From the IMG/VR virus record IMGVR_UViG_2724679654_000001, positions 15,221 to 79,220 of that record: a stretch of DNA of 64,000 nt. The stretch is one strand, 5' to 3'. The notes below the pieces were generated by a model. It searched no databases. It saw only the letters and a program-made list of their open reading frames with translations, and was not told the origin of the DNA. Source of the DNA: a virus (taxonomy: Duplodnaviria; Caudoviricetes). The position numbers and the translations under genes were made by a program. How positions within the stretch are numbered: position 1 is the first letter of the stretch; each line of letters begins with the position of its first letter. Below, one piece after another: positions 6,380-57,322 of this stretch.

Positions 6380-7079
6380 TGGCACAACGGTACCAATATC
6401 GACAAACAAACGAGGTAAATTGTTAATGGCCGACAACAGACCGCCCCTGGATATTCCAAAAGCAACTACGCGCGCAGCATTGGCCAAAAATATAGGTATC
6501 AGATTGCGCGCAGCAAGAGAATCAATCGGAATGCAACAAAGTGACGCGGCTAGACGGCTAGGATATGCCAATTCATCGAAATTGGCCAAGATCGAGGGCG
6601 GAACAGACACAAATTCTGTTCCGCATTGGATGATTCTGAGAGCCGCCAGACTTTATGAGGTGTCGATCGATTACATTTACGGTGAATCGGATGACTGGGA
6701 GTTGAGCGCCAGAGCTTTGCAAGAAAGGGATATGGCCAAATGGATGATGGAGGCGTGGGAGGCTGGTCGCCAGCGTGATATGGAGACATTGAAGAGGCTC
6801 AAAATCAGGCTTGATGCTATCAGTGAATCAGCCGCTTTAATGTTCTCCGCATCGCAGGATGTGAATGACGCATTTAATAGATTCGTTGAGCTTAATTCAG
6901 AAACTTTTGATGACATGCGCGGAGGAAGCAGACTGCTTTCTGCTATCGGCCGCTTGTTGGACGTATCCGGTACCAGCAAAAGGAAGGTCACGAGGTTTAG
7001 CAGTGAGTGTGCGGTCCCTGGTATTGGGCAGCTTATCGTGTCGCAGTCTGATAATCCGATTCAAAAGAAATTGTTGTGA
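6369..7079 (+). CDS. XRE-family HTH regulator; candidate late-gene activator
   Basis: IGIRLRAARESIGMQQSDAARRLGYANSSKLAKIEGG; immediately upstream of the terminase genes. Confidence 0.75.
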   Translation: MVINGTTVPISTNKRGKLLMADNRPPLDIPKATTRAALAKNIGIRLRAARESIGMQQSDAARRLGYANSSKLAKIEGGTDTNSVPHWMILRAARLYEVSIDYIYGESDDWELSARALQERDMAKWMMEAWEAGRQRDMETLKRLKIRLDAISESAALMFSASQDVNDAFNRFVELNSETFDDMRGGSRLLSAIGRLLDVSGTSKRKVTRFSSECAVPGIGQLIVSQSDNPIQKKLL

Positions 7080-7083
7080 TTGT

Positions 7084-7950
7084 ATGGCAGCAAAACCAAA
7101 ATTAACACTGGAAGAGTGGGCTAAGGTACGAGCGGCCTGGGAAGCCGACCCGCGCGAAGGATATGCGTGGATTATTGAGGAATTATCGCTGCCAGTATCT
7201 GCGCCGGGTGTACGCAAGGTTTCTATTCGTGATCAATGGAAAAAGAAAAGCAAGAAACCATCAAATAAGGATGCCGCAAAGCTATCAAATCCCAAGAAAA
7301 CAGCAGAAGAATCAAGCAAGTTAATACCTAAAAGAAAGGTTTCCAAGGTTTCTAAGGAAAACCATGCAAAGGTTTCGGAAACCATCGATATAGAAACCAT
7401 CAATGATGAGCCGGAAACTGATAATGAAGCAGGAAGTGGATCCGCGGGTAGACCTACGTGTTACAGAGAAAAGTATAATAAACAGGCGTATAGGTTATGC
7501 CTGTTGGGCGCAACAGATGACGAGCTGGCTGAGTTCTTTGAGGTCGATGTTAGCACCATTAATAGGTGGAAAATTGATCACTCGGGATTTTACGAGTCAT
7601 TAAAAAAGGGAAAGATGTCCGCTGACTCCAGAGTGGCGGAGAGATTGTACGAGAGAGCCATGGGTTACTCGCACCCTGAAATCCACGTGAGTAATCATCA
7701 AGGAGAAATTACTCAAACCGAATTAATTAAGCATTATCCGCCCGATACTGCGGCCGCATTTATTTGGTTAAAGAACCGTCAGCCTGGGAAATGGCGCGAT
7801 AAGATCGAAGTCGGTATTAATGTGAAACTGGACCGGGAAACATTGATTCAGATTGAGCAAACCTTCATGGAAAAGATGACGCAGGCAAGGGAGCGTCAAA
7901 AAGCCTTGCTTGTGGAGCGCGGCATCCTGATAGAACACGGTCAAGATTAG
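7084..7950 (+). CDS. Terminase small subunit (PacA position)
   Basis: GRPTCY...LCLLGATDDELAEFFEV, HYPPDTAAAFIWLKNRQPGKWRDK; ATG 7084 (the track extends to 6865). Confidence 0.85.
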   Translation: MAAKPKLTLEEWAKVRAAWEADPREGYAWIIEELSLPVSAPGVRKVSIRDQWKKKSKKPSNKDAAKLSNPKKTAEESSKLIPKRKVSKVSKENHAKVSETIDIETINDEPETDNEAGSGSAGRPTCYREKYNKQAYRLCLLGATDDELAEFFEVDVSTINRWKIDHSGFYESLKKGKMSADSRVAERLYERAMGYSHPEIHVSNHQGEITQTELIKHYPPDTAAAFIWLKNRQPGKWRDKIEVGINVKLDRETLIQIEQTFMEKMTQARERQKALLVERGILIEHGQD

Positions 7951-7953
7951 CCA

Positions 7954-9525
7954 ATGGCAGTGCCCGGTTTGATATTCAATGACCCAAGGTATCCGGAATT
8001 TATAGAAAGATATCACGCAGATCCGCTACGGTTTGCAGTCAATGTATGCGGTCTGGTGCCATCGGAAGATCAAGAGGAATTGTTTCATGCAATCGTTCCT
8101 GAGAACGCGAAAGTAAGCGTGGTATCTGGTACTTCGACCGGGAAAACCGCAGCGTTTGCAAGAATATCGCTATGGCATCTGCTTTGTCACCCGATAGCAT
8201 CCTATGAGGGCAAGATCGAGATAGGCTCCAACACTTACATTGGTGCGCCCAGGATAAGCCAAGTTGCTGACGGCATTTGGAAGGAAATGAATGATGCCTA
8301 TCTTGGTATTGCTTATGGACCATATAGCTGGATAAACGATTACTACGAAATAACCAAGACCAGCGTTCACGTAAAAAGATTTGAAGAGCAATGGTTTATT
8401 TCACAGGTTGCTATGCAGAAGGGGCAGGCAATCGGTGTGGCCGGTAAGCATAGGCACTGGCAGTTAATCATCATCGATGAGGCGGCCGGTGTGCCGGATG
8501 ATCACTATGATGTTATTGAGGGCACCCAAACGCAGGCAGGCAATAGAACGTTACTGGCTTCTCAAGGTGTCAGGAATGCCGGGCGTTTCTACGAAACGCA
8601 CCATAATCTGTCAAAAACCAATGGTGGATCATGGGATAACCTGAGATTTAGCTCTGAAAGATCGCCTTTTGTAACCCTGCAATGGCTTAAAGATAGGGAA
8701 GATGAGACTGGAGGCAAGGATTCGACTGAGTACAAGATCCGGGTAAGAGGTCTTTTTGCTGAAGATTCTGGAAGCAACCTGCTATCCAGATCGGAATTAG
8801 AGAGAGCGTTTGAACCACGAAAAATCATCCAGGATGATGAGCCTTATGGCTTGTTTGTGCTGGCCGACGTGGGGCTTGGTGAGTATCGGGATGAATCGGT
8901 TGCTGTTGTTGCAAAGGTTATTGGATATGGAGACTTTGGGGACGATGCGCGGCGCGTAGAGTTTATTGAAATACCCTATTGCACGAACAGTAAGAATGAA
9001 ATCGTTTTCGCCGGTGATCTGGTTAACCTGGTGGGCAAATTATCCAACGCTACATTACTGGTTGATAACGGCGGTGTGGGTGCCACGGTGAATAAGCTGA
9101 TAGAAGCATCCGGGGTGCCGGTCGTAAGGGTCAATTGGGGTAAACCATGCTTTAAGAGAGAGTACCAGGATCGTTTCTATAACCGCCGGGCGTGCGCGAT
9201 GGTGAGATTCCGTGATGCGGTCAGATCCGGGCGCGTAGTGCTACCGCAAAATATTGATAGAAAGTTGCGTGAAAAAATACTGCTACAGGGCGCCAGGTTG
9301 CCCTATCACTTTGCAGAAGCGGGTGGGTTGAAGTATGTGATGGAAAAGAAGGAAGAAATGCGAAAGCAAGGGATAAAGTCACCAGACATTATTGATGCGA
9401 TGAGTTTTGTATTCCTTGAGGATGCCACAAGTTATATGGTGTCCGCTGATGCTGAATCAGGAGGCGCAGGGTCAATAGCAGCAACCGCCCAGGGAAAGGT
9501 TGATGATATGTTTGCTGATGTTTGA
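7954..9525 (+). CDS. Terminase large subunit, P1 PacB-like
   Basis: Walker A VSGTSTGKT, Walker B LIIIDEAAGV, nuclease LADVG and KSPDIIDAM. Confidence 0.9.
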   Translation: MAVPGLIFNDPRYPEFIERYHADPLRFAVNVCGLVPSEDQEELFHAIVPENAKVSVVSGTSTGKTAAFARISLWHLLCHPIASYEGKIEIGSNTYIGAPRISQVADGIWKEMNDAYLGIAYGPYSWINDYYEITKTSVHVKRFEEQWFISQVAMQKGQAIGVAGKHRHWQLIIIDEAAGVPDDHYDVIEGTQTQAGNRTLLASQGVRNAGRFYETHHNLSKTNGGSWDNLRFSSERSPFVTLQWLKDREDETGGKDSTEYKIRVRGLFAEDSGSNLLSRSELERAFEPRKIIQDDEPYGLFVLADVGLGEYRDESVAVVAKVIGYGDFGDDARRVEFIEIPYCTNSKNEIVFAGDLVNLVGKLSNATLLVDNGGVGATVNKLIEASGVPVVRVNWGKPCFKREYQDRFYNRRACAMVRFRDAVRSGRVVLPQNIDRKLREKILLQGARLPYHFAEAGGLKYVMEKKEEMRKQGIKSPDIIDAMSFVFLEDATSYMVSADAESGGAGSIAATAQGKVDDMFADV

Positions 9526-10684: not shown

Positions 10685-11103
10685 ATGTGCGGCGGAATCC
10701 AATATCAAGATCATAAAATCTACTTTCCACAGCCCGAAGCCAGATTACCTATAAGTCTCAGGCATGGCGGTGTAACTTGGGTTATCTGGGGTAGACGTAA
10801 GGACGAGTCAGTAGGTAAATTCCCCAACGGTGGATGGGCGCGAATTGATTCCATCAAGATGGGTAAATGGAAACCTTGGCATCCCAGACCCGTATTGATC
10901 CCTGCAGATAGTTTCATGGAAAAGGATCAAGAAAAGCAATCTCATTGGATCACTCTTGCACCTGGTATGGCTATTCAAGCGTTGCTTGCAGAGCGAGACG
11001 GTGAAAAAGGGGGTATATGGTTACTGAAGAAACTCCATTTGAGTATCACTGGATTCATGATAGATGGCCAAGATTGAGGAAGATAGCTACTGTCGCGGAT
11101 TGA
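10685..11103 (+). pseudogene. SRAP-like (SOS response-associated peptidase) gene with a frameshift near 11005-11013
   Basis: N-terminal MCG, LIPADSFME; the family C-terminus YMVTEE...IHDRWPRL is in the -1 frame after GAAAAAGGGGG. Confidence 0.65.
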
Positions 11104-12326: not shown

Positions 12327-12744
12327 CGTTTCAAACTATTATCGTCAGGACAAGCTGTAATTCCGTGAAAAATTATTCAAAAATTATTCCAAACTGAATT
12401 ATGTGTTACAGCGCAAGCATAAAATCGCAGTTTGCGAAATTGTGCAAGTTGACCAATTGGCTAATTTAGAGGGTTGCTGATGGCAATGTTGATTTCTCAG
12501 CCCTCATTTGTGGTCAAAAAAATTAACATTGCTATTTAATACATTATGAATTTTTCTTTCAAAGCTTTACATTTCCACCATTCAAGCTTTACATTTAACC
12601 GAATTCCTCAGCATCACCGCTTGACTCAATCAGGCGTTTTTTTGTCTGCGACATATTGGTAATACCGGCGCTTAGTGGATGGATTGCGCGTGTAACGAGA
12701 TCTGCCAGTACAGATTGCGAAGTTTTGAAAACACAATACAGTCT

Positions 12745-13320
12745 TTAAACAGGTGGATTGAGGGAATCCATTATTTTATTGTGGACAGATTCAAGATGAT
12801 AATTTGATCTACATGGAAAGCGAATTAGTTTCAGACCGGCGGTCTTGCAAGCCTTTTCAACGAAAATATCCCTTGCGCGCGTCTTGCTAAGACTATGGCT
12901 TAGGTCGTCCAATTCGATAACGGCAAGAACAGCGAGTGTATGCTTGTCGCAAACCACATAATCAAAATGCTTTGATGATATTTTATAGAATGCAGTATTC
13001 CAATTTCTTCGACTTAATGCGTGATCAGGAACCAGTACGTCAGCAATGCGCACTTTTGCAAATATTTCATAATCATCATTTGATAAGGCTTGTTTCAGCG
13101 CCAAGAAAAATGAATGTTCGGCTTTAGAAAACAAGTTTCCCAGTGATTTATATTTAAAATTAGTAAATCCACCACTAAGCTTTATAACAAGTTTCAGTAA
13201 AAAAGCCAGAAAAACAATTGTGAAAACAAATATCCAGATATCAACTAACAGAGGCTGTTTCGCTATCATATCGGTGAATGTTTTAGCAACAATAGTCATA
13301 TTCGGAGAAAGATCCATCAC
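12745..13320 (-). CDS. DUF2726 domain membrane-anchored protein
   Basis: TM helix, then LFSKAEHSFF, IFAKVRIADV, KHFDYVVCD, IELDDLSH. Confidence 0.85.
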   Translation of the reverse strand: MMDLSPNMTIVAKTFTDMIAKQPLLVDIWIFVFTIVFLAFLLKLVIKLSGGFTNFKYKSLGNLFSKAEHSFFLALKQALSNDDYEIFAKVRIADVLVPDHALSRRNWNTAFYKISSKHFDYVVCDKHTLAVLAVIELDDLSHSLSKTRARDIFVEKACKTAGLKLIRFPCRSNYHLESVHNKIMDSLNPPV

Positions 13321-13631
13321 ACCACCTGCAGATTTGAGAAAAGAAGATTAGCGGCAAGCAAAACGAAATATAAACCTGCTTAGCAATATGACCAAATCAG
13401 AAACAATAAACATCATGTTATTATTATGCATTTGCAGTCTCTCGGTTACTTGAATGGAGAAAACTAAATGGCGCGTTTATACTTTATATTAGAAGCTATT
13501 CTATTCTAAAGTTAATTAAGTAATAAGGACTTAAGAACTCATAGCCAAGTTATTTGACATTCCGTTCCAGATTATGAGGCATTTTTTGTCGTATATATTA
13601 CGTTAGGCTTCACAAACCCACCCCGCGCGAT

Positions 13632-14204
13632 ATGAAAATGTCAATTACACTATTGAACGACCTTAGTTTCGTGATCGGACTTATCGGACTCGCGGAAATG
13701 CATGAGCGAACAGAGGTATCGCTATGGCTTGCGGATGAGACAGGATCGATTGCAGATCCCCGCGAACAATCCTCAGAGCTTACGGAACGCTCGGTGCGAG
13801 AGCCTTGCCATGAAGATGAAGTATTAAAACCAGTTGCTACCGATCAGGAACCCGCCAAATTAATTCCGGACGGAGACGAACCGCAATGGATGAAGTTTCT
13901 GGTACTAAAGAAGTGGCACTTCACTTTAGGCGATGTTGATTGCGTACCGTCCGTTCCGCACGGTCACGAGAACGCAAAGACTCAATCCTGGCCAAAATTG
14001 AACCCGTATACCGGACGTGTATTTGCTGCAATACATCAGGAAGATGTGTCGCAGAGACTCGATAGAAATGAAATGCGCCTAATGTGGCGAAACAAAGACT
14101 TTGTAGAGCGTTGTCATCGTCAAGTTAACTGGTATGCCAATAACTTCCCAAGCTTCCCATTCCGTCATGCTAGGCGCGGTCTGCTGCGCTTTCCAAGATG
14201 GTGA
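13632..14204 (+). CDS. Cassette 1: hypothetical protein
   Basis: 190-aa ORF filling the cassette; WHF...D..PSVPHGH motif. Confidence 0.7.
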   Translation: MKMSITLLNDLSFVIGLIGLAEMHERTEVSLWLADETGSIADPREQSSELTERSVREPCHEDEVLKPVATDQEPAKLIPDGDEPQWMKFLVLKKWHFTLGDVDCVPSVPHGHENAKTQSWPKLNPYTGRVFAAIHQEDVSQRLDRNEMRLMWRNKDFVERCHRQVNWYANNFPSFPFRHARRGLLRFPRW

Positions 14205-14251
14205 AGCCTCTAGCCCTGCGCCCCTGAGCTTGAACGTTAGGCATCAAGATC

Positions 14252-14698
14252 ATGAGCCTCAATCCACAGATAACGGGTAACCTGGGCTTGTACTACTGCT
14301 GCTACAAGCTTTCATTGCTGGGCTGGAACGTTATGCCTACAACAAGAAATGCGCGGGGCGTGGACATCATTGCCTACAGCAGAGACGCCTCTCGCTTCAA
14401 AGGCATTCAAGTTAAAGCCCTCAGCAAGCGCGCCCCTGTGCCGCTCGGGCAGTCGCTGGACAAATGCATGGGTGACTATTGGGTCATCATCAACAAGGTG
14501 GCGTCCGCAGCACCGCAGGCATTCATTCTTACGCCGTCCGAGGTAAAGGAGCTTGCCCATCGCGGAGAGAAAGAAGGCCGCGTTTCTTTCTGGCTGCAAC
14601 CCAATAGCTATGAGCAGCCTCAGTTCAAAGAGGCATGGGAACGCATCGGTCACGGTGGCCTTGATGCCCAACCCGGCGCCTCTGATCTCCAACGTTAA
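14252..14698 (+). CDS. Cassette 2: PD-(D/E)XK-family nuclease
   Basis: RNARGVDIIAY...GIQVKALS; reads through into the attC remnant. Confidence 0.75.
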   Translation: MSLNPQITGNLGLYYCCYKLSLLGWNVMPTTRNARGVDIIAYSRDASRFKGIQVKALSKRAPVPLGQSLDKCMGDYWVIINKVASAAPQAFILTPSEVKELAHRGEKEGRVSFWLQPNSYEQPQFKEAWERIGHGGLDAQPGASDLQR

Positions 14699-14705
14699 GT
14701 TTTTC

Positions 14706-15368
14706 ATGCCACTGACCGAAGCCATCCAAAAAGCACAAGCTCAATCACCCTGGCATGTTGGAAATGCTGTTCTATATGAACTATGCAGCTCTCATCCAAA
14801 ACATTCCCAAGAGCCTGACGTCATTGCTAAAGTTTGGCTGGTTGGTCGAGCATATGCCGCAGCAATTGAACGTAGAAAAAACAAGTCAGACGAAAACGCT
14901 AATTTTTACGTCACCAAAGTCGCGCCTGACATCGCTAAGTCAGCCATCGATGCATGGATTGAAGAGGCCAAGCAATACGACCGGCCATGCCAGGAATCGT
15001 GGTCAACGTTGCTTCACGTTCATCACGAAACCACGCAACTGTTTAGCTCAATAAGTGGACTTGAGAAGCGTTCGCTGGCATCGAAGTATCTACACTTCCA
15101 TGTGCCTAAGCTTTTTTACATCTACGACACCAGAGCTAGTCAAGCCATCAGCATGCTTAGCGGCGTATTGAAGCGGGCTGGAAAGTCGAGCGCCAAAGTT
15201 GATAACGAGTATCGTAAGTTCGCCGAAAAATGCTTGTCTCTGCATGAGCATGTCGAGAGTCGATATGGTGTCAGCCTCAACCCGAGAGAAATTGACAACT
15301 TACTGCTTTATGTTCACGAAAAAAACCTAATCATTCGTTCAACGGGACTGCCTACGGCAGCTCGTTAG
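14706..15368 (+). CDS. Cassette 3: hypothetical, possibly a helix-hairpin-helix glycosylase-like fold
   Basis: AKVWLVGRAYAAAIERR, RSLASKYLHFHVPKLFYIYDTRA; ATG 14706 just after the core site (track start 14553). Confidence 0.65.
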   Translation: MPLTEAIQKAQAQSPWHVGNAVLYELCSSHPKHSQEPDVIAKVWLVGRAYAAAIERRKNKSDENANFYVTKVAPDIAKSAIDAWIEEAKQYDRPCQESWSTLLHVHHETTQLFSSISGLEKRSLASKYLHFHVPKLFYIYDTRASQAISMLSGVLKRAGKSSAKVDNEYRKFAEKCLSLHEHVESRYGVSLNPREIDNLLLYVHEKNLIIRSTGLPTAAR

Positions 15369-15374
15369 AATTAT

Positions 15375-15460
15375 CAAAAGGCGTTCTGCAATAAAGGGAA
15401 GTCTGGATAAAGATAATTCGCATTAGGGATCGGGCAGCATGCCCCCTGTGGGGCCATACC
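15375..15460 (-). repeat. 86-bp element, copy 1
   Basis: Reverse complement aligns ungapped to 53968-54053 with 10 mismatches (manual count). Confidence 0.9.
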
Positions 15461-15492
15461 ATTAGGTGTTAGTTGTTGACACCGCATAGCTA

Positions 15493-17496
15493 TCAATTGC
15501 TTAACCCACCAGTAACAATATGCGCAATCCGTCTATCCTTAACATCCTGACCTACTTCTTGCTGTGCTGAAGCAATAACCGTTTGATTCCTGCTTCCCGT
15601 GCTTGCCAATGGCTCTACAATTGATGGCTCATCCGCTGGCAATTGAGGCGCTGGCATTCGGGGTGATTCTGGCACCTGTGCGTGAGCGGTTTGAACATTC
15701 ACAACGGTTGCGGCATAGCGTTTATCCAGTGCAATACGGTTGGTATCAATGTACTCGGATGCCGTTCTGCTATTAGCGCCATAATTCAGGTTCATTGATC
15801 GCTGAGTGTTGGATGATAAGTCATCCTTCGATTTTCCACCCTCAGACCCGCGTATGATCTCTTGCGCAGCACTTGGTCCAAGTTGGTGCATCATGTATAT
15901 GTTTTCTGCAGTGACCGGCAATCCTGCTTTTCTAAGCATGGCCATGTTCTGGCTGGTTAACTTCATCCCGCCTTCAATGTTCTGATCAACATCGAAACGA
16001 TTCTTTATTCCCACACCTGACGCTGTTTGTCCGGTGAATTGATATAACCCGAGCGCGCCAGTCTTGCTGATGGCATTGGGATTGCCGCCGCTCTCCATTG
16101 CCGCTATTTTCTGCATCATTACCGGGCCAAGTCCATATTTCTTAGCCTGGGCAGATATCTTATCCTGTATTTCCTGCGATATTCCGCCCGGAATATTGGC
16201 TGAAGTGTTGGCAGCACTGGTCTTTAATGTCTTGATGCGCTTGGCTTCGGCATCGGTATAGGTTCCATATCTTGATAGATCCTCACCGCCCTTGATGCCG
16301 TCAAACATCGCTTTGTGACGGTAACCTTTTAGCGTTACATTCTCTAATGCAGATCCTGCCCCGGCCTTTGCAACATCGTATGCGCGCTTTGTGGCCGAGG
16401 TAATGCTTGATACTTTATCGGTGATAGGCTTGATTGCTTTTGGAATATCAATACCAAGCTTATCTTTTACAAACCTAGTGAATATATTCCAGGATGATTC
16501 TACTTTGCTTCCAATGCTGCTAAGTACATTGTTGAATTTGTCTGTTGTAGAATCCCAGGAATTGATGATTTTTGTAGCCACTGATTTAAAATCAGTAACA
16601 GTCTCATCCCATGCCTTGCCTATTGCTCCACCGGTTATGGATGCACCGGAAGCAATGAATGGCAATGCCATCGCAAGCATAGGTAGAATATAACGCCTCA
16701 ACCAGCTGCTATCACCGCCTGATGGATCTGATGAAGATGTTGTCTCATCAATGTTCTTTAGGCTTTTGTTGGCTGCCTTATTGAAAACCGACTCATCCCT
16801 TCGGAATAGCTTTATTTCACCAAATATCTTTCTAAACCACCGGAAAGTATTCTTTTGTTCACGCCCGGTACCGGCTGTCAGGATCTCATAACCACGCGCC
16901 ATGGGTTGCGCCACTTCACTGAATGCCTTAATTGCCGGGTCAGTTTCCTCCATGCCGCTGCTGGCAGAACTCACGGCATCAGCAATCTTTCCAGCCGCTG
17001 CGCGCACTACCCCATCTTCGGATGGTGATGAGCTAACATATTTGTCATTGCTGCCAGCACTTTCATTTCCGAATAAAGGACTGCTGCTGCCACCATTCTT
17101 TATGAATCGACCGGTTTTGGTGTCTCTTTCGGCGGACTGATTCACTTTTGCAGTCGATCTGACATTTCCCGGTGTTGCGGTTGGTTTTAGTTGTGCCATG
17201 GCAGTTTTGCGAGTGCTGGCAGCCGATGGTGCTGATGATGATGCTTTGGATTTACGCGCGCTTTCATCCCTGCGCTGTGGTATGGCAACCGGTTGTTGCG
17301 GTGCGCGTTCGTTGTCACTCTTGCGATTGGCTGATACCTGCCTGTCAGATGGCAATCCGGATACAACCTTCCCACTGAGTGCCAATCTAACGGCTCTCAT
17401 GTCATTCCTGATGTCACTCCACAGGTCAAACGTTCTGTTTAAGTCGAGCGGTTCGCCTATCAGGAAGCCGTCATTGTCGCTTTTAATGTTTGCCAT
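15493..17496 (-). CDS. Virion lytic transglycosylase / tape-measure-like protein (P1 Sit-like)
   Basis: SLT motifs IAAMESGGNPNAISKTGALGLYQF and YMMHQLGP; W-periodic helical segment. Confidence 0.75.
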   Translation of the reverse strand: MANIKSDNDGFLIGEPLDLNRTFDLWSDIRNDMRAVRLALSGKVVSGLPSDRQVSANRKSDNERAPQQPVAIPQRRDESARKSKASSSAPSAASTRKTAMAQLKPTATPGNVRSTAKVNQSAERDTKTGRFIKNGGSSSPLFGNESAGSNDKYVSSSPSEDGVVRAAAGKIADAVSSASSGMEETDPAIKAFSEVAQPMARGYEILTAGTGREQKNTFRWFRKIFGEIKLFRRDESVFNKAANKSLKNIDETTSSSDPSGGDSSWLRRYILPMLAMALPFIASGASITGGAIGKAWDETVTDFKSVATKIINSWDSTTDKFNNVLSSIGSKVESSWNIFTRFVKDKLGIDIPKAIKPITDKVSSITSATKRAYDVAKAGAGSALENVTLKGYRHKAMFDGIKGGEDLSRYGTYTDAEAKRIKTLKTSAANTSANIPGGISQEIQDKISAQAKKYGLGPVMMQKIAAMESGGNPNAISKTGALGLYQFTGQTASGVGIKNRFDVDQNIEGGMKLTSQNMAMLRKAGLPVTAENIYMMHQLGPSAAQEIIRGSEGGKSKDDLSSNTQRSMNLNYGANSRTASEYIDTNRIALDKRYAATVVNVQTAHAQVPESPRMPAPQLPADEPSIVEPLASTGSRNQTVIASAQQEVGQDVKDRRIAHIVTGGLSN

Positions 17497-17503
17497 GGTC
17501 TAT

Positions 17504-18415
17504 TTACATTTTAATAAAAGTGTCGAGTTGCGAAAATGTCATCTGGATTTCCTGTATCGCATCATCGCGCCGGGATAGGCTTATTTCCAGATTTGACGGC
17601 CTGAACCAGCCAATGCTCTCGTAAGCTTCTGCTGGCGCGCTTGCCCGGGTGATAAAGGAGTGAACAATTTTAAACTGTATCGCATACTGGCTAGGGGTGC
17701 CCATGGTGCCATCCTGAGATATAGTTGCCGCATGATGTTGCTCATACCAGCGTTTTATCGTGCCAAATTGATCATCCATTGTGGTTACACGCAGTTCGAC
17801 CGGCTCGCTGCTTTGAGGAAAATCAAGAACAGCCCCGCCTACCTTGCGTTTGTCTGCTGATATGGTCAGTGGTGTGTAATCAAGCTCCGTGGCGAACAGA
17901 TTGAACCATTGCGATATCCAATCACCCATAAGCGCGCTTGATACCTCAATCAGAAACAGATTCTTTTTCGATAGCCGGGCATTTCGCATCGTTTGGTATA
18001 TTTGCCGGGCTTCGGTAGGCGTGATGCCGCCAAATAATGGCGTTGGTCTACCCCAATACATGGCTTGTGATGCAATTCCGCTCATTCCTGGCAGGAAATC
18101 ATTCAATAATCCGGAATCAAGCACGCGCAGTCCGGCGCCACTGATATCTCCGCGCATCAGATCACCTACGACACCGCCACCTACATTCAATGCTCTATGG
18201 GCTTCTATCGGTATGTGCTGGTTAATCGCATTCCGGACGACATTGGTTGCCATGGCTCCACCAATGTTTGATACGGCTTGAGCTAATTCACCGCCGCCCA
18301 TCATATTAGCGGTCTGTTTGCTGATCCCGCCCGTGATAGACGTGGTACCTGAAATAGTGGCTCCAATCGTTCCTTGTCTGGATAGTGCTTGCGATACGTT
18401 GTTGTATAAGGACAT
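17504..18415 (-). CDS. Putative tail/baseplate morphogenesis protein
   Basis: Co-transcribed between the portal and Sit-like genes; tube-like C-terminal half. Confidence 0.5.
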   Translation of the reverse strand: MSLYNNVSQALSRQGTIGATISGTTSITGGISKQTANMMGGGELAQAVSNIGGAMATNVVRNAINQHIPIEAHRALNVGGGVVGDLMRGDISGAGLRVLDSGLLNDFLPGMSGIASQAMYWGRPTPLFGGITPTEARQIYQTMRNARLSKKNLFLIEVSSALMGDWISQWFNLFATELDYTPLTISADKRKVGGAVLDFPQSSEPVELRVTTMDDQFGTIKRWYEQHHAATISQDGTMGTPSQYAIQFKIVHSFITRASAPAEAYESIGWFRPSNLEISLSRRDDAIQEIQMTFSQLDTFIKM

Positions 18416-18419
18416 ATTG

Positions 18420-20060
18420 TTACCTGCCTTTTCTGCGGCGTTGTTTGCGGTTCTGGATAATTGGAGTATCTGTTTCTATCACGCTATCCATTTTTTCTTG
18501 ACCGAATCCTTGCCCACCTGGTCCGTCACCCGGGTTTTCATCCTTCGTTTCTACAATTGGCGCATACAGTTTTGCCTGATCTTCATCGAGCATCATGGTC
18601 TTGGATAAGAACTCTTGCATCATTTCTTTAGTAGCGCCAATATCTTTCATTTGCTGCATGGCTTGAACCAGTATCATCCCGGAATTCATCGAATCAGCTT
18701 TCGTGCGTTGCTTCTCAGCTTCTAATGCTGAGATAGAACCGTAGAAATTAACAGTAAATGGCCGTTCATGAGGATGAAACACCGTTCCATACTTGTGCAT
18801 CGTATGGATATCAATAGCGTGATAAATAAATTCTGATAATGAGTTACGAATAATCCTTGAGTTTTCTGCTGCCTGAGCCGACATTCTGAAAAATCCACCT
18901 TCACCAAGACCGCCAGCCAGTTGGTCGGCAAAACCAAGCATAGCCAGATCAACGCCAATGGCACCGGAATACATGCGGGCGTGAAGCATAATATCTTCAA
19001 TGCTGATATTGTTTGTTCTACCAGACTGACCACCATTTGCGTTACCCACGGTCGTGAGTTGTTTTTCATTGAACGTAGGAATAATGTGCCTGATCCGTTC
19101 CAATACCGGCTGACCGTTCTTGACAGCATCTTCAGCACGCAGTTTCGATGCGGTCAGCATGGCTTTAATAGATGCCAGGAATCGGTTTTGTTGCTCAATC
19201 GACATTGACGTTAGGTTAACAGTCAGCATTTGTTCGTCTATCGAATCCAGCCACCGTTGGCCAACAATACCGACAAGTGATGAATACAGATTGTCGTATG
19301 GGCCTTCAGCGTTATAGAACAGCGAGCCACCGGCCATGCTTGGCATGATTGGTAGATTCTCAATGTTATCTTCGGTAATTGCTATCCTTAACGCCTTCTC
19401 TACAACCCCAAACTGTGGCACCCATTGCGTGCGCGGCATTTTGAAGCGTGCCATCTGTGAGATATCCAGTCGCTCGAAATTGCGCGCCCCGGTATAGACC
19501 GCATAGCCAATTGTTCTATTACCCTTCTCGAACGGCTGCACCAATTGCGGCCTGATCATTTCTCCGGTGTAAAGATCCACAACTCCGCGCGATCTTTCTG
19601 CATAAATTCGCGCGAAAGAGTCGCCAAAAGCTGCCCCGGTGTACGCCACTGTGCGCGCCTCACGGTTAATCAGTGGCGATAATGAAGCCGATATCTCATC
19701 AGCAATAGCAGCCAATCTTTTGTTCTTTTTGGCCTCCGCCGTCTTTTCGATAAAGACCAGATCACCGCTTGTTTCGTGCCCACCAAGCGCGCAAGTAACC
19801 AGCAATCCTATTGCGGTCGATCCAATCGGATCTGATTCCATACTCGACCATTTGTTATAAATCTGCTGGCGTGACCTGGCGGCGCGTCTGTCAGTCCCCA
19901 GCAATGACGAGACAGTGGTCTGTCCTGATCCGTAAAGATACGCATCGGATTCTTTTATTTCCTTGGCCGCCGGGAGATTGGATTTAGCCCATTTACTGGA
20001 TGTCATTCCAATACTGGCAAGAAAGCTGTTCTTTTTGATGTGATTTTCTGACTGCGGCAT
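18420..20060 (-). CDS. Portal protein (P1 Prt-like)
   Basis: 546 aa; RQQIYNKWSSMESDPI, GGLGEGGFFRMS; divergent from the protease. Confidence 0.75.
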   Translation of the reverse strand: MPQSENHIKKNSFLASIGMTSSKWAKSNLPAAKEIKESDAYLYGSGQTTVSSLLGTDRRAARSRQQIYNKWSSMESDPIGSTAIGLLVTCALGGHETSGDLVFIEKTAEAKKNKRLAAIADEISASLSPLINREARTVAYTGAAFGDSFARIYAERSRGVVDLYTGEMIRPQLVQPFEKGNRTIGYAVYTGARNFERLDISQMARFKMPRTQWVPQFGVVEKALRIAITEDNIENLPIMPSMAGGSLFYNAEGPYDNLYSSLVGIVGQRWLDSIDEQMLTVNLTSMSIEQQNRFLASIKAMLTASKLRAEDAVKNGQPVLERIRHIIPTFNEKQLTTVGNANGGQSGRTNNISIEDIMLHARMYSGAIGVDLAMLGFADQLAGGLGEGGFFRMSAQAAENSRIIRNSLSEFIYHAIDIHTMHKYGTVFHPHERPFTVNFYGSISALEAEKQRTKADSMNSGMILVQAMQQMKDIGATKEMMQEFLSKTMMLDEDQAKLYAPIVETKDENPGDGPGGQGFGQEKMDSVIETDTPIIQNRKQRRRKGR

Positions 20061-53752: not shown

Positions 53753-53967
53753 CTTTTTCTCTTCATTCCTAACATCGGCTTAGGAAAATTGCCGGTATTG
53801 CTGAGCACATTATCAATACGCCCCTTTAATATGGGGTACACAGTTTGTTACAATTATTTTTTTGTAATAAAAGCGTTCTAAATTGTTATGTAATTTATTG
53901 GTTTTTAAGAAATAATAAAAGTTCTTTGCCTGCACATCCAAGGGTCGCGCCGCCGACCGGCGCGAAG

Positions 53968-54053
53968 GGTATGACCCCATAGGGGGCATGCTGCCCGATC
54001 CCTAATACGGATTTTCTTTATCCTGACTTCCCCTTATTGCTAAACGTCTTTTG
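53968..54053 (+). repeat. 86-bp element, copy 2
   Basis: About 88% identical to the reverse complement of 15375-15460. Confidence 0.9.
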
Positions 54054-57096: not shown

Positions 57097-57322
57097 TAGA
57101 TTACGATTCTGTGAATTCTCTTAAAACTAACTTTAAATTATTCAGTTCAATTTGATTTGGTTTGATGTTAATCATATTAGCGATGATAAAAACATTACAC
57201 CTGATGTGCAACCTTTTTCACTACACTCAAGATTTCCTCGTATCTTTCTGATTACACCATATTACTGAGCGGGTTTATATTTCATTTTATCTGCCGCTTA
57301 ATTCTGTTTTTTTCCTCAAGAT

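Follow-up and report, generated by a model that had tools for sequence, protein, structure and literature searches.

The window analysed here (64,000 nucleotides, nt; bases 15221–79220 of the 79220-base provirus record G000, IMGVR_UViG_2724679654_000001) contains an array of three integron-type gene cassettes behind an attI-like site (13526–15369). The record is a myovirus-like prophage with relatives within Nitrosomonas genomes, and the window encodes DNA methyltransferases, a primosomal protein, the small and large terminase subunits (6865–9525), a portal, a tube-like protein and a tail sheath. An SLT-domain protein on the minus strand (15493–20060), relatives of which were found in IMG/VR contigs and Nitrosomonas genomes, lies to the right of the array, and the stretch from the terminase to this protein is an accessory region. 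The array and its borders are composed of the following features.

13336–13525, plus strand: phage-specific left part of the platform preceding the attI site, shared with related prophages
13526–13602, plus strand: attI-like site matched by profile R2, with the crossover between G13602 and T13603
13603–14236, plus strand: cassette 1, with open reading frame (ORF) 1 at 13632–14204 (190 amino acids, aa; no known family)
14201–14242, plus strand: junction B, attC of cassette 1; inverse core altered, spacer CCTGC and right arm kept, left arm and loop missing
14237–14694, plus strand: cassette 2, with ORF2 at 14252–14698 (148 aa, predicted PD-(D/E)xK nuclease fold); its ends match those of the L003 cassette
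14663–14700, plus strand: junction C, attC of cassette 2; GCCCAAC, spacer CCGGC and right arm kept, left arm and loop missing
14695–15369, plus strand: cassette 3, with ORF3 at 14706–15368 (220 aa)
15325–15367, plus strand: junction D, attC of cassette 3; kept through the hairpin and L′, spacer and R′ missing
15371–15463, plus strand: conserved phage right flank, outside the array; recurs at 53965–54053 (88%) and in other viral contigs

The original prediction held that the phage had captured these units from a host as integron cassettes and fixed them as morons. Phage morons are genes that lie between phage modules, have a foreign GC content and are swapped for other cargo in relatives, and the array has each of these properties. 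It lies between conserved phage modules, and its GC content (0.50) differs from that of its left neighbourhood (0.35) and of the whole window (0.45). DNA homology with the closest relatives (L039, L040/L041, L053 and L054) ends at approximately 13601 and restarts at approximately 15370, and other genes occupy this interval in those relatives. A megablast search of the phage collection with window 12500–16500 returned no match.

Cassette units and end complementarity

The three units start with GTTAGGC at 13602, GTTAGGC at 14236 and GTTAAGT at 14694 (the G of the core followed by TTRRRY). All six terminal strings quoted in the original prediction were exact, at 13602, 14201, 14236, 14663, 14694 and 15321, and the quoted arms were present as well (right arms at 14220 and 14678, hairpin arms at 15341 and 15356). 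The end complementarity of each unit was evaluated by reverse-complementing the 12 bases at its start (11 in unit 3), finding the best match within 76 bases around the ORF end and comparing this match with those of 20000 random words of the window. The match was 9/12 in unit 1, 11/12 in unit 2 and 9/11 in unit 3, levels equalled by 587, 6 and 196 of the 20000 random words, respectively. Each unit thus ends in the complement of its own start, as proposed, to a degree beyond chance.

A further proposal, that the loss of stop codons in the inverse cores makes ORF2 and ORF3 read through, was not supported, because the CAA of GCCCAAC in ORF2 is common to the cassette-borne homologues L001–L003 (L003 likewise reads into its own attC) and the TAA of the inverse core in ORF3 is out of frame.

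Decay of the attC sites

Comparison with the intact attC sites of the family confirmed that the first two sites have lost their central stem and kept their right arms; junctions B and C also lack part of the 3′ stem. The inverse core of unit 1 is altered relative to those in L235, L259 and contigs of the sequencing runs X2 and X6, and junction C and the intact attC at L070 2947–3010 agree in inverse-core type and spacer. In folding analyses, B (14195–14250) and C (14655–14710) performed no better than shuffled sequences (z +0.9 to +1.2; 165–177 of 200 shuffles equal or better). The hairpin at 15315–15375 was better than its shuffles (z −3.9 and −3.4; 0/200). The third site was said to have kept this hairpin and lost its right end, which agrees with an X2 contig that matches 15334–15367 (2 differences) and continues with a spacer and GTTAGGC where the window turns to the phage flank.

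An attC model (R1) was built from 17 sites (alignment A2), mostly from related bacterial arrays, with seeds picked by script and curated by eye; one member, L153, was mis-delimited. In a 235-kb search, R1 detected no significant attC in the window, the best match being junction C (13.6 bits, E 2). With filters off and the search restricted to window 12500–16500 (8 kb on both strands), the three best matches were the three junctions, all on the plus strand: C with 13.6 bits (E 0.033), B with 9.4 bits (E 0.33) and D with 9.3 bits (E 0.34). The relaxed search that had been recommended therefore singled out the junctions within 8 kb, and none of them was significant in 235 kb. A pairing of 15325 with ATTAGGG at 15421–15428 in the R1 output was taken as chance, and this flank is shared with phages without cassettes.

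No foldable attC (R″–L″…L′–R′) was found at any of the three junctions. The array was likewise not an attC-site cluster that lacks an integron-integrase (CALIN) in the sense of at least two attC sites by covariance model, R1 giving none at E < 0.01 even in the 8-kb search. All three junctions are without attC structure and, as none of them folds as an attC, none should serve as a recombination partner.

The attI site and the absence of intI

Profile R2 was constructed from 18 attI sites (alignment A4) adjoining the chromosomal integrase gene intI in Nitrosomonadaceae and Methylococcaceae. It matched window 13526–13607 with 38.4 bits (E 6.1e-10 in 506 kb searched), a score inflated in the last 18 positions because the pattern by which 10 of the 18 sites had been located came in part from the window; the same core is present in the other 8, which were identified through intI alone. 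The related phage L054/L234 was matched with 39.4 bits. The 17-base core before the window crossover is identical to those of L085, L086, L088 and L092, and cassette 1 is joined at the same canonical G/TT as in chromosomes.

The search for a host intI whose attI resembles 13550–13608, proposed as a check, was positive. In the Nitrosomonas metagenome-assembled genome (MAG) G002, which hosts the closest relative, the upstream intergenic end of the intI on contig C81 resembles window 13554–13608, up to …ATTACG/TTAGGC. Among 121 genomes sampled from the family of G002, 26 had an intI above the curated cut-off. Ten intI-adjoining loci carry the 13554–13608 motif with at most two mismatches in the 17-base core. 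A pattern scan located the attI site in many more genomes of the Nitrosomonas, Nitrosospira and Methylobacter type, and in eight loci read from it the intI start lies approximately 152 nt from the crossover. A pattern from the phage-specific half of the attI gave three matches in the viral contigs, all in unrelated coding sequence. Given the match to host attI sites, the proposal that the phage captured cassettes becomes one in which the phage carries an attI where cassettes were inserted.

The intI of G002 (C81:7340–8295; L066/L070) is in two pieces (311 and 138 bits) located 17 nt apart, and is either a frameshifted pseudogene or the product of an assembly error. In L086, L091, L092 and L124, the sequence after the attI crossover has the same start, GTTCCCTAAC, and the following 20 bases are also identical in L086 and L091; this start may belong to a first cassette common to these loci or to an element that inserted at attI.

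The stated absence of intI from the window extended to the full record, in which a TIGR02249 search gave no match. A tblastn search of the record with chromosomal IntI at E up to 10 yielded two weak matches, both far from the array. The window accordingly has no intI adjoining its attI, as a complete integron would. A divergent intI at approximately 150 nt from the attI is also missing, a situation shared with 25 of 43 bacterial loci with this attI. These loci originated from a search of the genome contigs with the attI-core pattern (L114–L193), in which 49 of 80 loci showed the full attI signature. In the 43 of these with at least 500 nt of upstream sequence, intI or a piece of it was present within 400 nt in 18 and absent in 25. 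The largest upstream ORF was of housekeeping type in nine of the ten intI-less loci inspected (LeuA-like, NAD ligase, HemN, aldose epimerase, UbiA and others) and an IS1595-type transposase in the tenth. The frequency of such loci suggests that orphan attI sites are common in Nitrosomonas- and Methylobacter-type genomes.

A related prophage with the same platform and other cassettes

The platform at the head of the array is shared with a prophage at a Nitrosomonas MAG locus (L054; extended version L234). Window 13336–13628 aligned with L054 2747–2456 at 78% identity over 295 bases (BLASTN), and in L054 this 290-nt platform occupies another phage slot, between a gene for a 160-aa protein of the structural module and the sheath region. 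The first cassette of L054 follows …ATTACG/TTAGCC and contains a TIR-like ORF of 372 aa (Pfam TIR_2, 24.7 bits, below the cut-off of 28; PADLOC TIR-TM, 6.5e-8). This cassette closes with a 10/10 complement of its first bases and with a 60-nt attC that is intact, scored 56.4 bits with R1 and was itself in the R1 training set. The attC of the second cassette has shrunk to approximately 20 nt, and that of the third is partly decayed and was not reported by R1; a good attC is thus found in L054 only at the attI-proximal cassette. The window and L054 have the platform, the attI and the junction nucleotide in common, and no cassette in common. In L039, a degenerate copy of the attI site is followed by genes without cassette marks.

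Parts of the platform also match L039, L040, L041 and L052, and its first 50 or so bases (window 13350–13403) recur at window 57245–57298 with 80% identity. The first part of the platform, containing AAATATAAACC.GCTTAGCAATATG, was also observed in L039, L040 and L052 and twice in L054, and may serve the phage as a promoter or regulatory site at the flank of accessory slots.

Cassette-borne homologues and matches in other samples

Homologues of all three ORFs are cassette-borne, which identifies the three units as integron cassettes in a phage without intI, and intact attC sites were found next to members of the ORF1, ORF2 and ORF3 families, as the original prediction had proposed to check. ORF1 had 268 relatives from many taxa, all annotated as hypothetical. 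In 68 metagenome loci with ORF1 homologues, R1 gave 38 attC matches, all on the strand of the homologue; the attC begins at most 45 nt downstream in 14 of the 68 loci and adjoins the homologue on either side in 20. L235 resembles unit 1 at its start and end, and L259 at its end, with the inverse core intact in each. No ORF1 homologue was detected in the genome contigs, and none was found with the query used in 401 genomes of the order of G002.

ORF2 was related to 36 loci scattered across many phyla (aa identity up to 87%). A canonical attC was recognised by eye in 6 of the 24 loci inspected; other homologues lie outside cassettes. Among the 36 loci, R1 matches adjoin the homologue in L009, L015 and L003, the last of which was a training sequence and has an intI fragment 954 nt from its copy. 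For ORF3, the genome contigs held two relatives, one of them next to an attC: the L038 homologue is followed at 22 nt by a site scoring 35.8 bits (E 2.2e-5).

Contigs from X2 and X6, groundwater sequencing runs of two studies, match the window only over 13601–14209 (10 differences) and 13877–14209 (5 differences), respectively, at approximately 98% identity. Past 14209, they continue with a canonical inverse-core end, a spacer and an attC left arm, in contrast to the altered junction B of the window. Upstream of 13601, the X2 contig has a different sequence, which is not attI. The nine differences listed between ORF1 and the X2 contig (five synonymous, four not) were uninformative. A contig from X9, a run of a fourth study, spans the junction between attI and cassette 1 (13545–13806) with no differences.

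Origin of the array

We put a probability of about 0.75 on the reading that the array (13526–15369) is an integrase-less one at a phage-borne attI, into which a host IntI acting in trans loaded cassettes that were then fixed as morons by attC decay. An ancestor of the phage group would have gained an attI, and the platform–attI junction shared by the phages suggests a single gain. Circular cassettes would then have been inserted through attI × attC recombination by a host IntI working in trans on prophage or replicating phage DNA. Later, the hairpins of the attC sites would have been lost, by internal deletion of the left arm and loop in B and C and by truncation in D; with no partner site for excision left, the genes would be fixed as morons, and their retention would reflect a benefit to the lysogen or the phage. 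Deletion of attC by replication slippage, leading to cassette “domestication”, has been proposed in the discussion section of a preprint (Loot et al., 10.1101/2022.09.11.507474). The idea of captured host cassettes fixed as morons is thereby supported, recast as insertion at an attI that the phage carries.

Several observations weigh against this reading. The right end of the array lies inside the attC of cassette 3, at no canonical crossover, so that at least one event not mediated by IntI (a deletion or illegitimate recombination) shaped the array. The reading also invokes two internal deletions of like extent, in B and C. The host genome of the closest relative, G002, has the split intI described above, the L054 genome has none above the cut-off, and no IntI is known for the window's own host. 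IntI action on the phage attI is deduced from sequence, and the R2 match that bears on it is partly inflated, as noted. Moreover, at columns that do not vary among the 18 chromosomal sites, the phage attI carries other bases (CGAC has become TGAC in both the window and L054, and the second box also differs), so that it may bind IntI poorly; the changes at columns invariant in A4 lie in the upstream boxes, and the core beside the crossover is intact. A promoter scan of the array gave 6 promoter-like sites against 5.2 in shuffled sequences, and none stood out.

The main rival explanation is that an ancestral phage took a chromosomal attI together with its cassettes en bloc by illegitimate recombination and later exchanged cargo with other arrays through homologous or illegitimate recombination, the source of the present differences between phages, IntI never having acted on phage DNA. 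Such an event would account for the off-crossover right end inside attC3 and for the alteration of the phage attI at chromosomally invariant positions. The bacterial attI sites that often lie without intI beside housekeeping genes (the 25 of 43 loci above) imply that the site has been copied to new places by some route, and Vibrio prophages are reported, in the survey PMC9892861, to have captured pieces of chromosomal integrons. On the other hand, the window and L054 share the platform–attI junction and no cassette, with the first cassette joined at the same G/TT in both, and in L054 the attI-proximal cassette has the sole intact attC and the later junctions are decayed, as insertion at attI predicts. 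We therefore regard en bloc capture as unlikely, albeit worth serious consideration.

Two further explanations are highly improbable. Ordinary morons with junction motifs that resemble integron cores by chance would fit the lack of GTTRRRY enrichment in the window (60 on the plus strand against approximately 62 expected) and the lack of any significant junction in the large attC-model search. This explanation is at odds with the end complementarity beyond chance and with the three best R1 matches in 8 kb falling on the junctions, all on the plus strand, and it is already contradicted by the attI profile match (E 6e-10), the cassette-borne homologues and the approximately 98% identical X2 and X6 contigs, whose match ends at cassette ends. 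Faulty assembly or binning, by which part of a chromosomal integron would have become attached to a phage contig, scarcely fares better as an explanation. Run X1, which covers the stretch best and may be the source sample, yielded no single spanning contig and left gaps at 14087–14137 and 14871–14893. Against an artefact stand the phage genes on both sides of the array, the X9 contig that covers the junction of attI and cassette 1 without differences and the independent MAG L054, which has the same platform and attI inside a related phage.

Insertion at a phage-borne attI could also be one case of a more general arrangement. Four unrelated, phage-like IMG/VR contigs (L101, L106, L107 and L113) carry the same attI core and significant attC sites outside the training set. 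In L101, primase, TerL, Ant- and Rha-like genes are followed by a full attI (72 bits) and two attC sites; L107 has three significant attC sites between DnaB and TerL, L106 has two and L113 has one. It is conceivable, and proposed here tentatively, that phages of nitrifiers and methanotrophs keep integrase-less attI sites as “landing pads” that host IntI loads and swaps in trans, as part of a wider network in which one integrase serves orphan attI sites; this network would comprise the 25 of 43 bacterial loci and the four viral contigs. IntI is often SOS-induced, as are prophages. If this arrangement holds, phages would obtain morons from the integron cassette pool and would in turn transport cassettes.

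Predicted functions of the cassette genes

Searches of Pfam, PHROGs, PADLOC and NCBIfam revealed no function for ORF1 or ORF3. For ORF2, the family searches gave only weak matches (Mrr_cat_2, 14.4 bits with a cut-off of 22, and two PHROGs of unknown function), and sequence searches of the PDB with the cargo returned nothing usable. The predicted structure of ORF2 (predicted local distance difference test score, pLDDT, 87.7) was similar in Foldseek to Hjc resolvases, the homing endonuclease I-Ssp6803I and nuclease chains of SPARDA (E 5e-5 to 2e-3; template modelling score 0.47–0.58), and a D…QxK motif is conserved in the ORF2 alignment (A5). ORF2 is thus predicted from its model to adopt a PD-(D/E)xK nuclease fold. 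The ORF1 model had a mean pLDDT of 63.3, with a conserved core below 50, and was left out of the fold search. An assignment of ORF3 to PF27257 came from a protein-atlas lead (15–19% of members) and was discarded, Pfam giving no confirmation at E up to 0.1. The suggestion that the cargo is anti-phage found no backing in the family searches, its sole test, and a role in defence or exclusion is a guess.

Neighbouring features

Directly left of the platform lies a DUF2726 gene (12745–13320, minus strand; 124 bits; 33%–35% GC), a further accessory gene of the slot. An ORF of 130 aa at 10685–11077, which begins with MCG, had no family match; a 75% identical homologue is located in the N. ureae locus L169, on the opposite strand approximately 3.5 kb downstream of an orphan attI. 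In the same slot of L040/L041 (L040 4690–6290), the place of the cassettes is taken by an ORF that looks secreted and by a long gene, rich in repeats, on the opposite strand.

The right-flank element of approximately 90 nt (15375–15463) ends in a GC-rich, hairpin-like stretch and had no Rfam match. It was also found in the viral contigs L049, L051 (twice) and L052, at times as the sole shared DNA, and may act as a terminator or mark the boundary of accessory-gene slots. The sole match in an Rfam scan was a tRNA at 1155–1227 (48.2 bits), inside the provirus record. A terminator scan of the array gave no result above shuffled sequences, and the sequencing runs listed for the array stretch included no RNA run.

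Comparison with known systems

The array resembles the sedentary integrons of Nitrosomonadaceae and Methylococcaceae (L070, L084–L092, L117, L126, L144 and others) in the type of attI, the G/TT junction and the attC family, including spacer and right-arm motifs. In those integrons, intI lies approximately 152 nt upstream and the attC sites are intact, whereas the window has no intI and its attC sites are destroyed. Leon and Roy reportedly described an active IntI from Nitrosomonas europaea in 2003.

CALINs and single attC sites lacking integron-integrase (SALINs) are said to be the subject of work by Cury et al. in 2016. The window shares with these, and with cassettes inserted in genomes, the presence of cassettes away from an integrase, and attC deletion of the slippage type is proposed as a route to domestication in the preprint discussion (10.1101/2022.09.11.507474). 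Relative to genome-inserted cassettes as outlined there, the insertion site in the window is a copy of attI and not of the attG type, and the replicon is a phage.

Integron parts in phages have already been published, and the present array adds a member. In phage genomes, Qi et al. 2023 (PMC9892861) report 17 CALINs (defined as two or more predicted attC sites clustered with no intI) besides three complete integrons and an In0; one of their cases is a Shewanella prophage whose CALIN comes with an attI of its own. In common with the cases described in the body of that survey, the window has a cassette array in a prophage, a host-type attI at its head and phage structural genes on both sides. 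It differs from these cases in that the record has no intI, no junction was called as attC by the covariance model and a related phage carries the attI platform in front of other cassettes. Among titles and beginnings of abstracts, none was found on integron parts in a Nitrosomonas phage, and the supplementary tables of PMC9892861 may list more.

The array shows that cassette arrays can outlive their own attC sites, and surveys based on attC models would miss such arrays because the sites are no longer recognisable. If host IntI acts on phage-borne attI sites, phages would both use the cassette pool and carry it in ammonia oxidisers and methanotrophs, bacteria of environmental importance; this route of gene flow is so far documented in few phages. 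Like ordinary phage morons, the three genes lie between phage modules, have a foreign GC content and are replaced in relatives. In contrast to ordinary morons, their route of entry is readable in the attI, the G/TT junction and the cassette ends, and the array thus provides a readable record of a temperate phage gaining three accessory genes via a bacterial gene-capture system.

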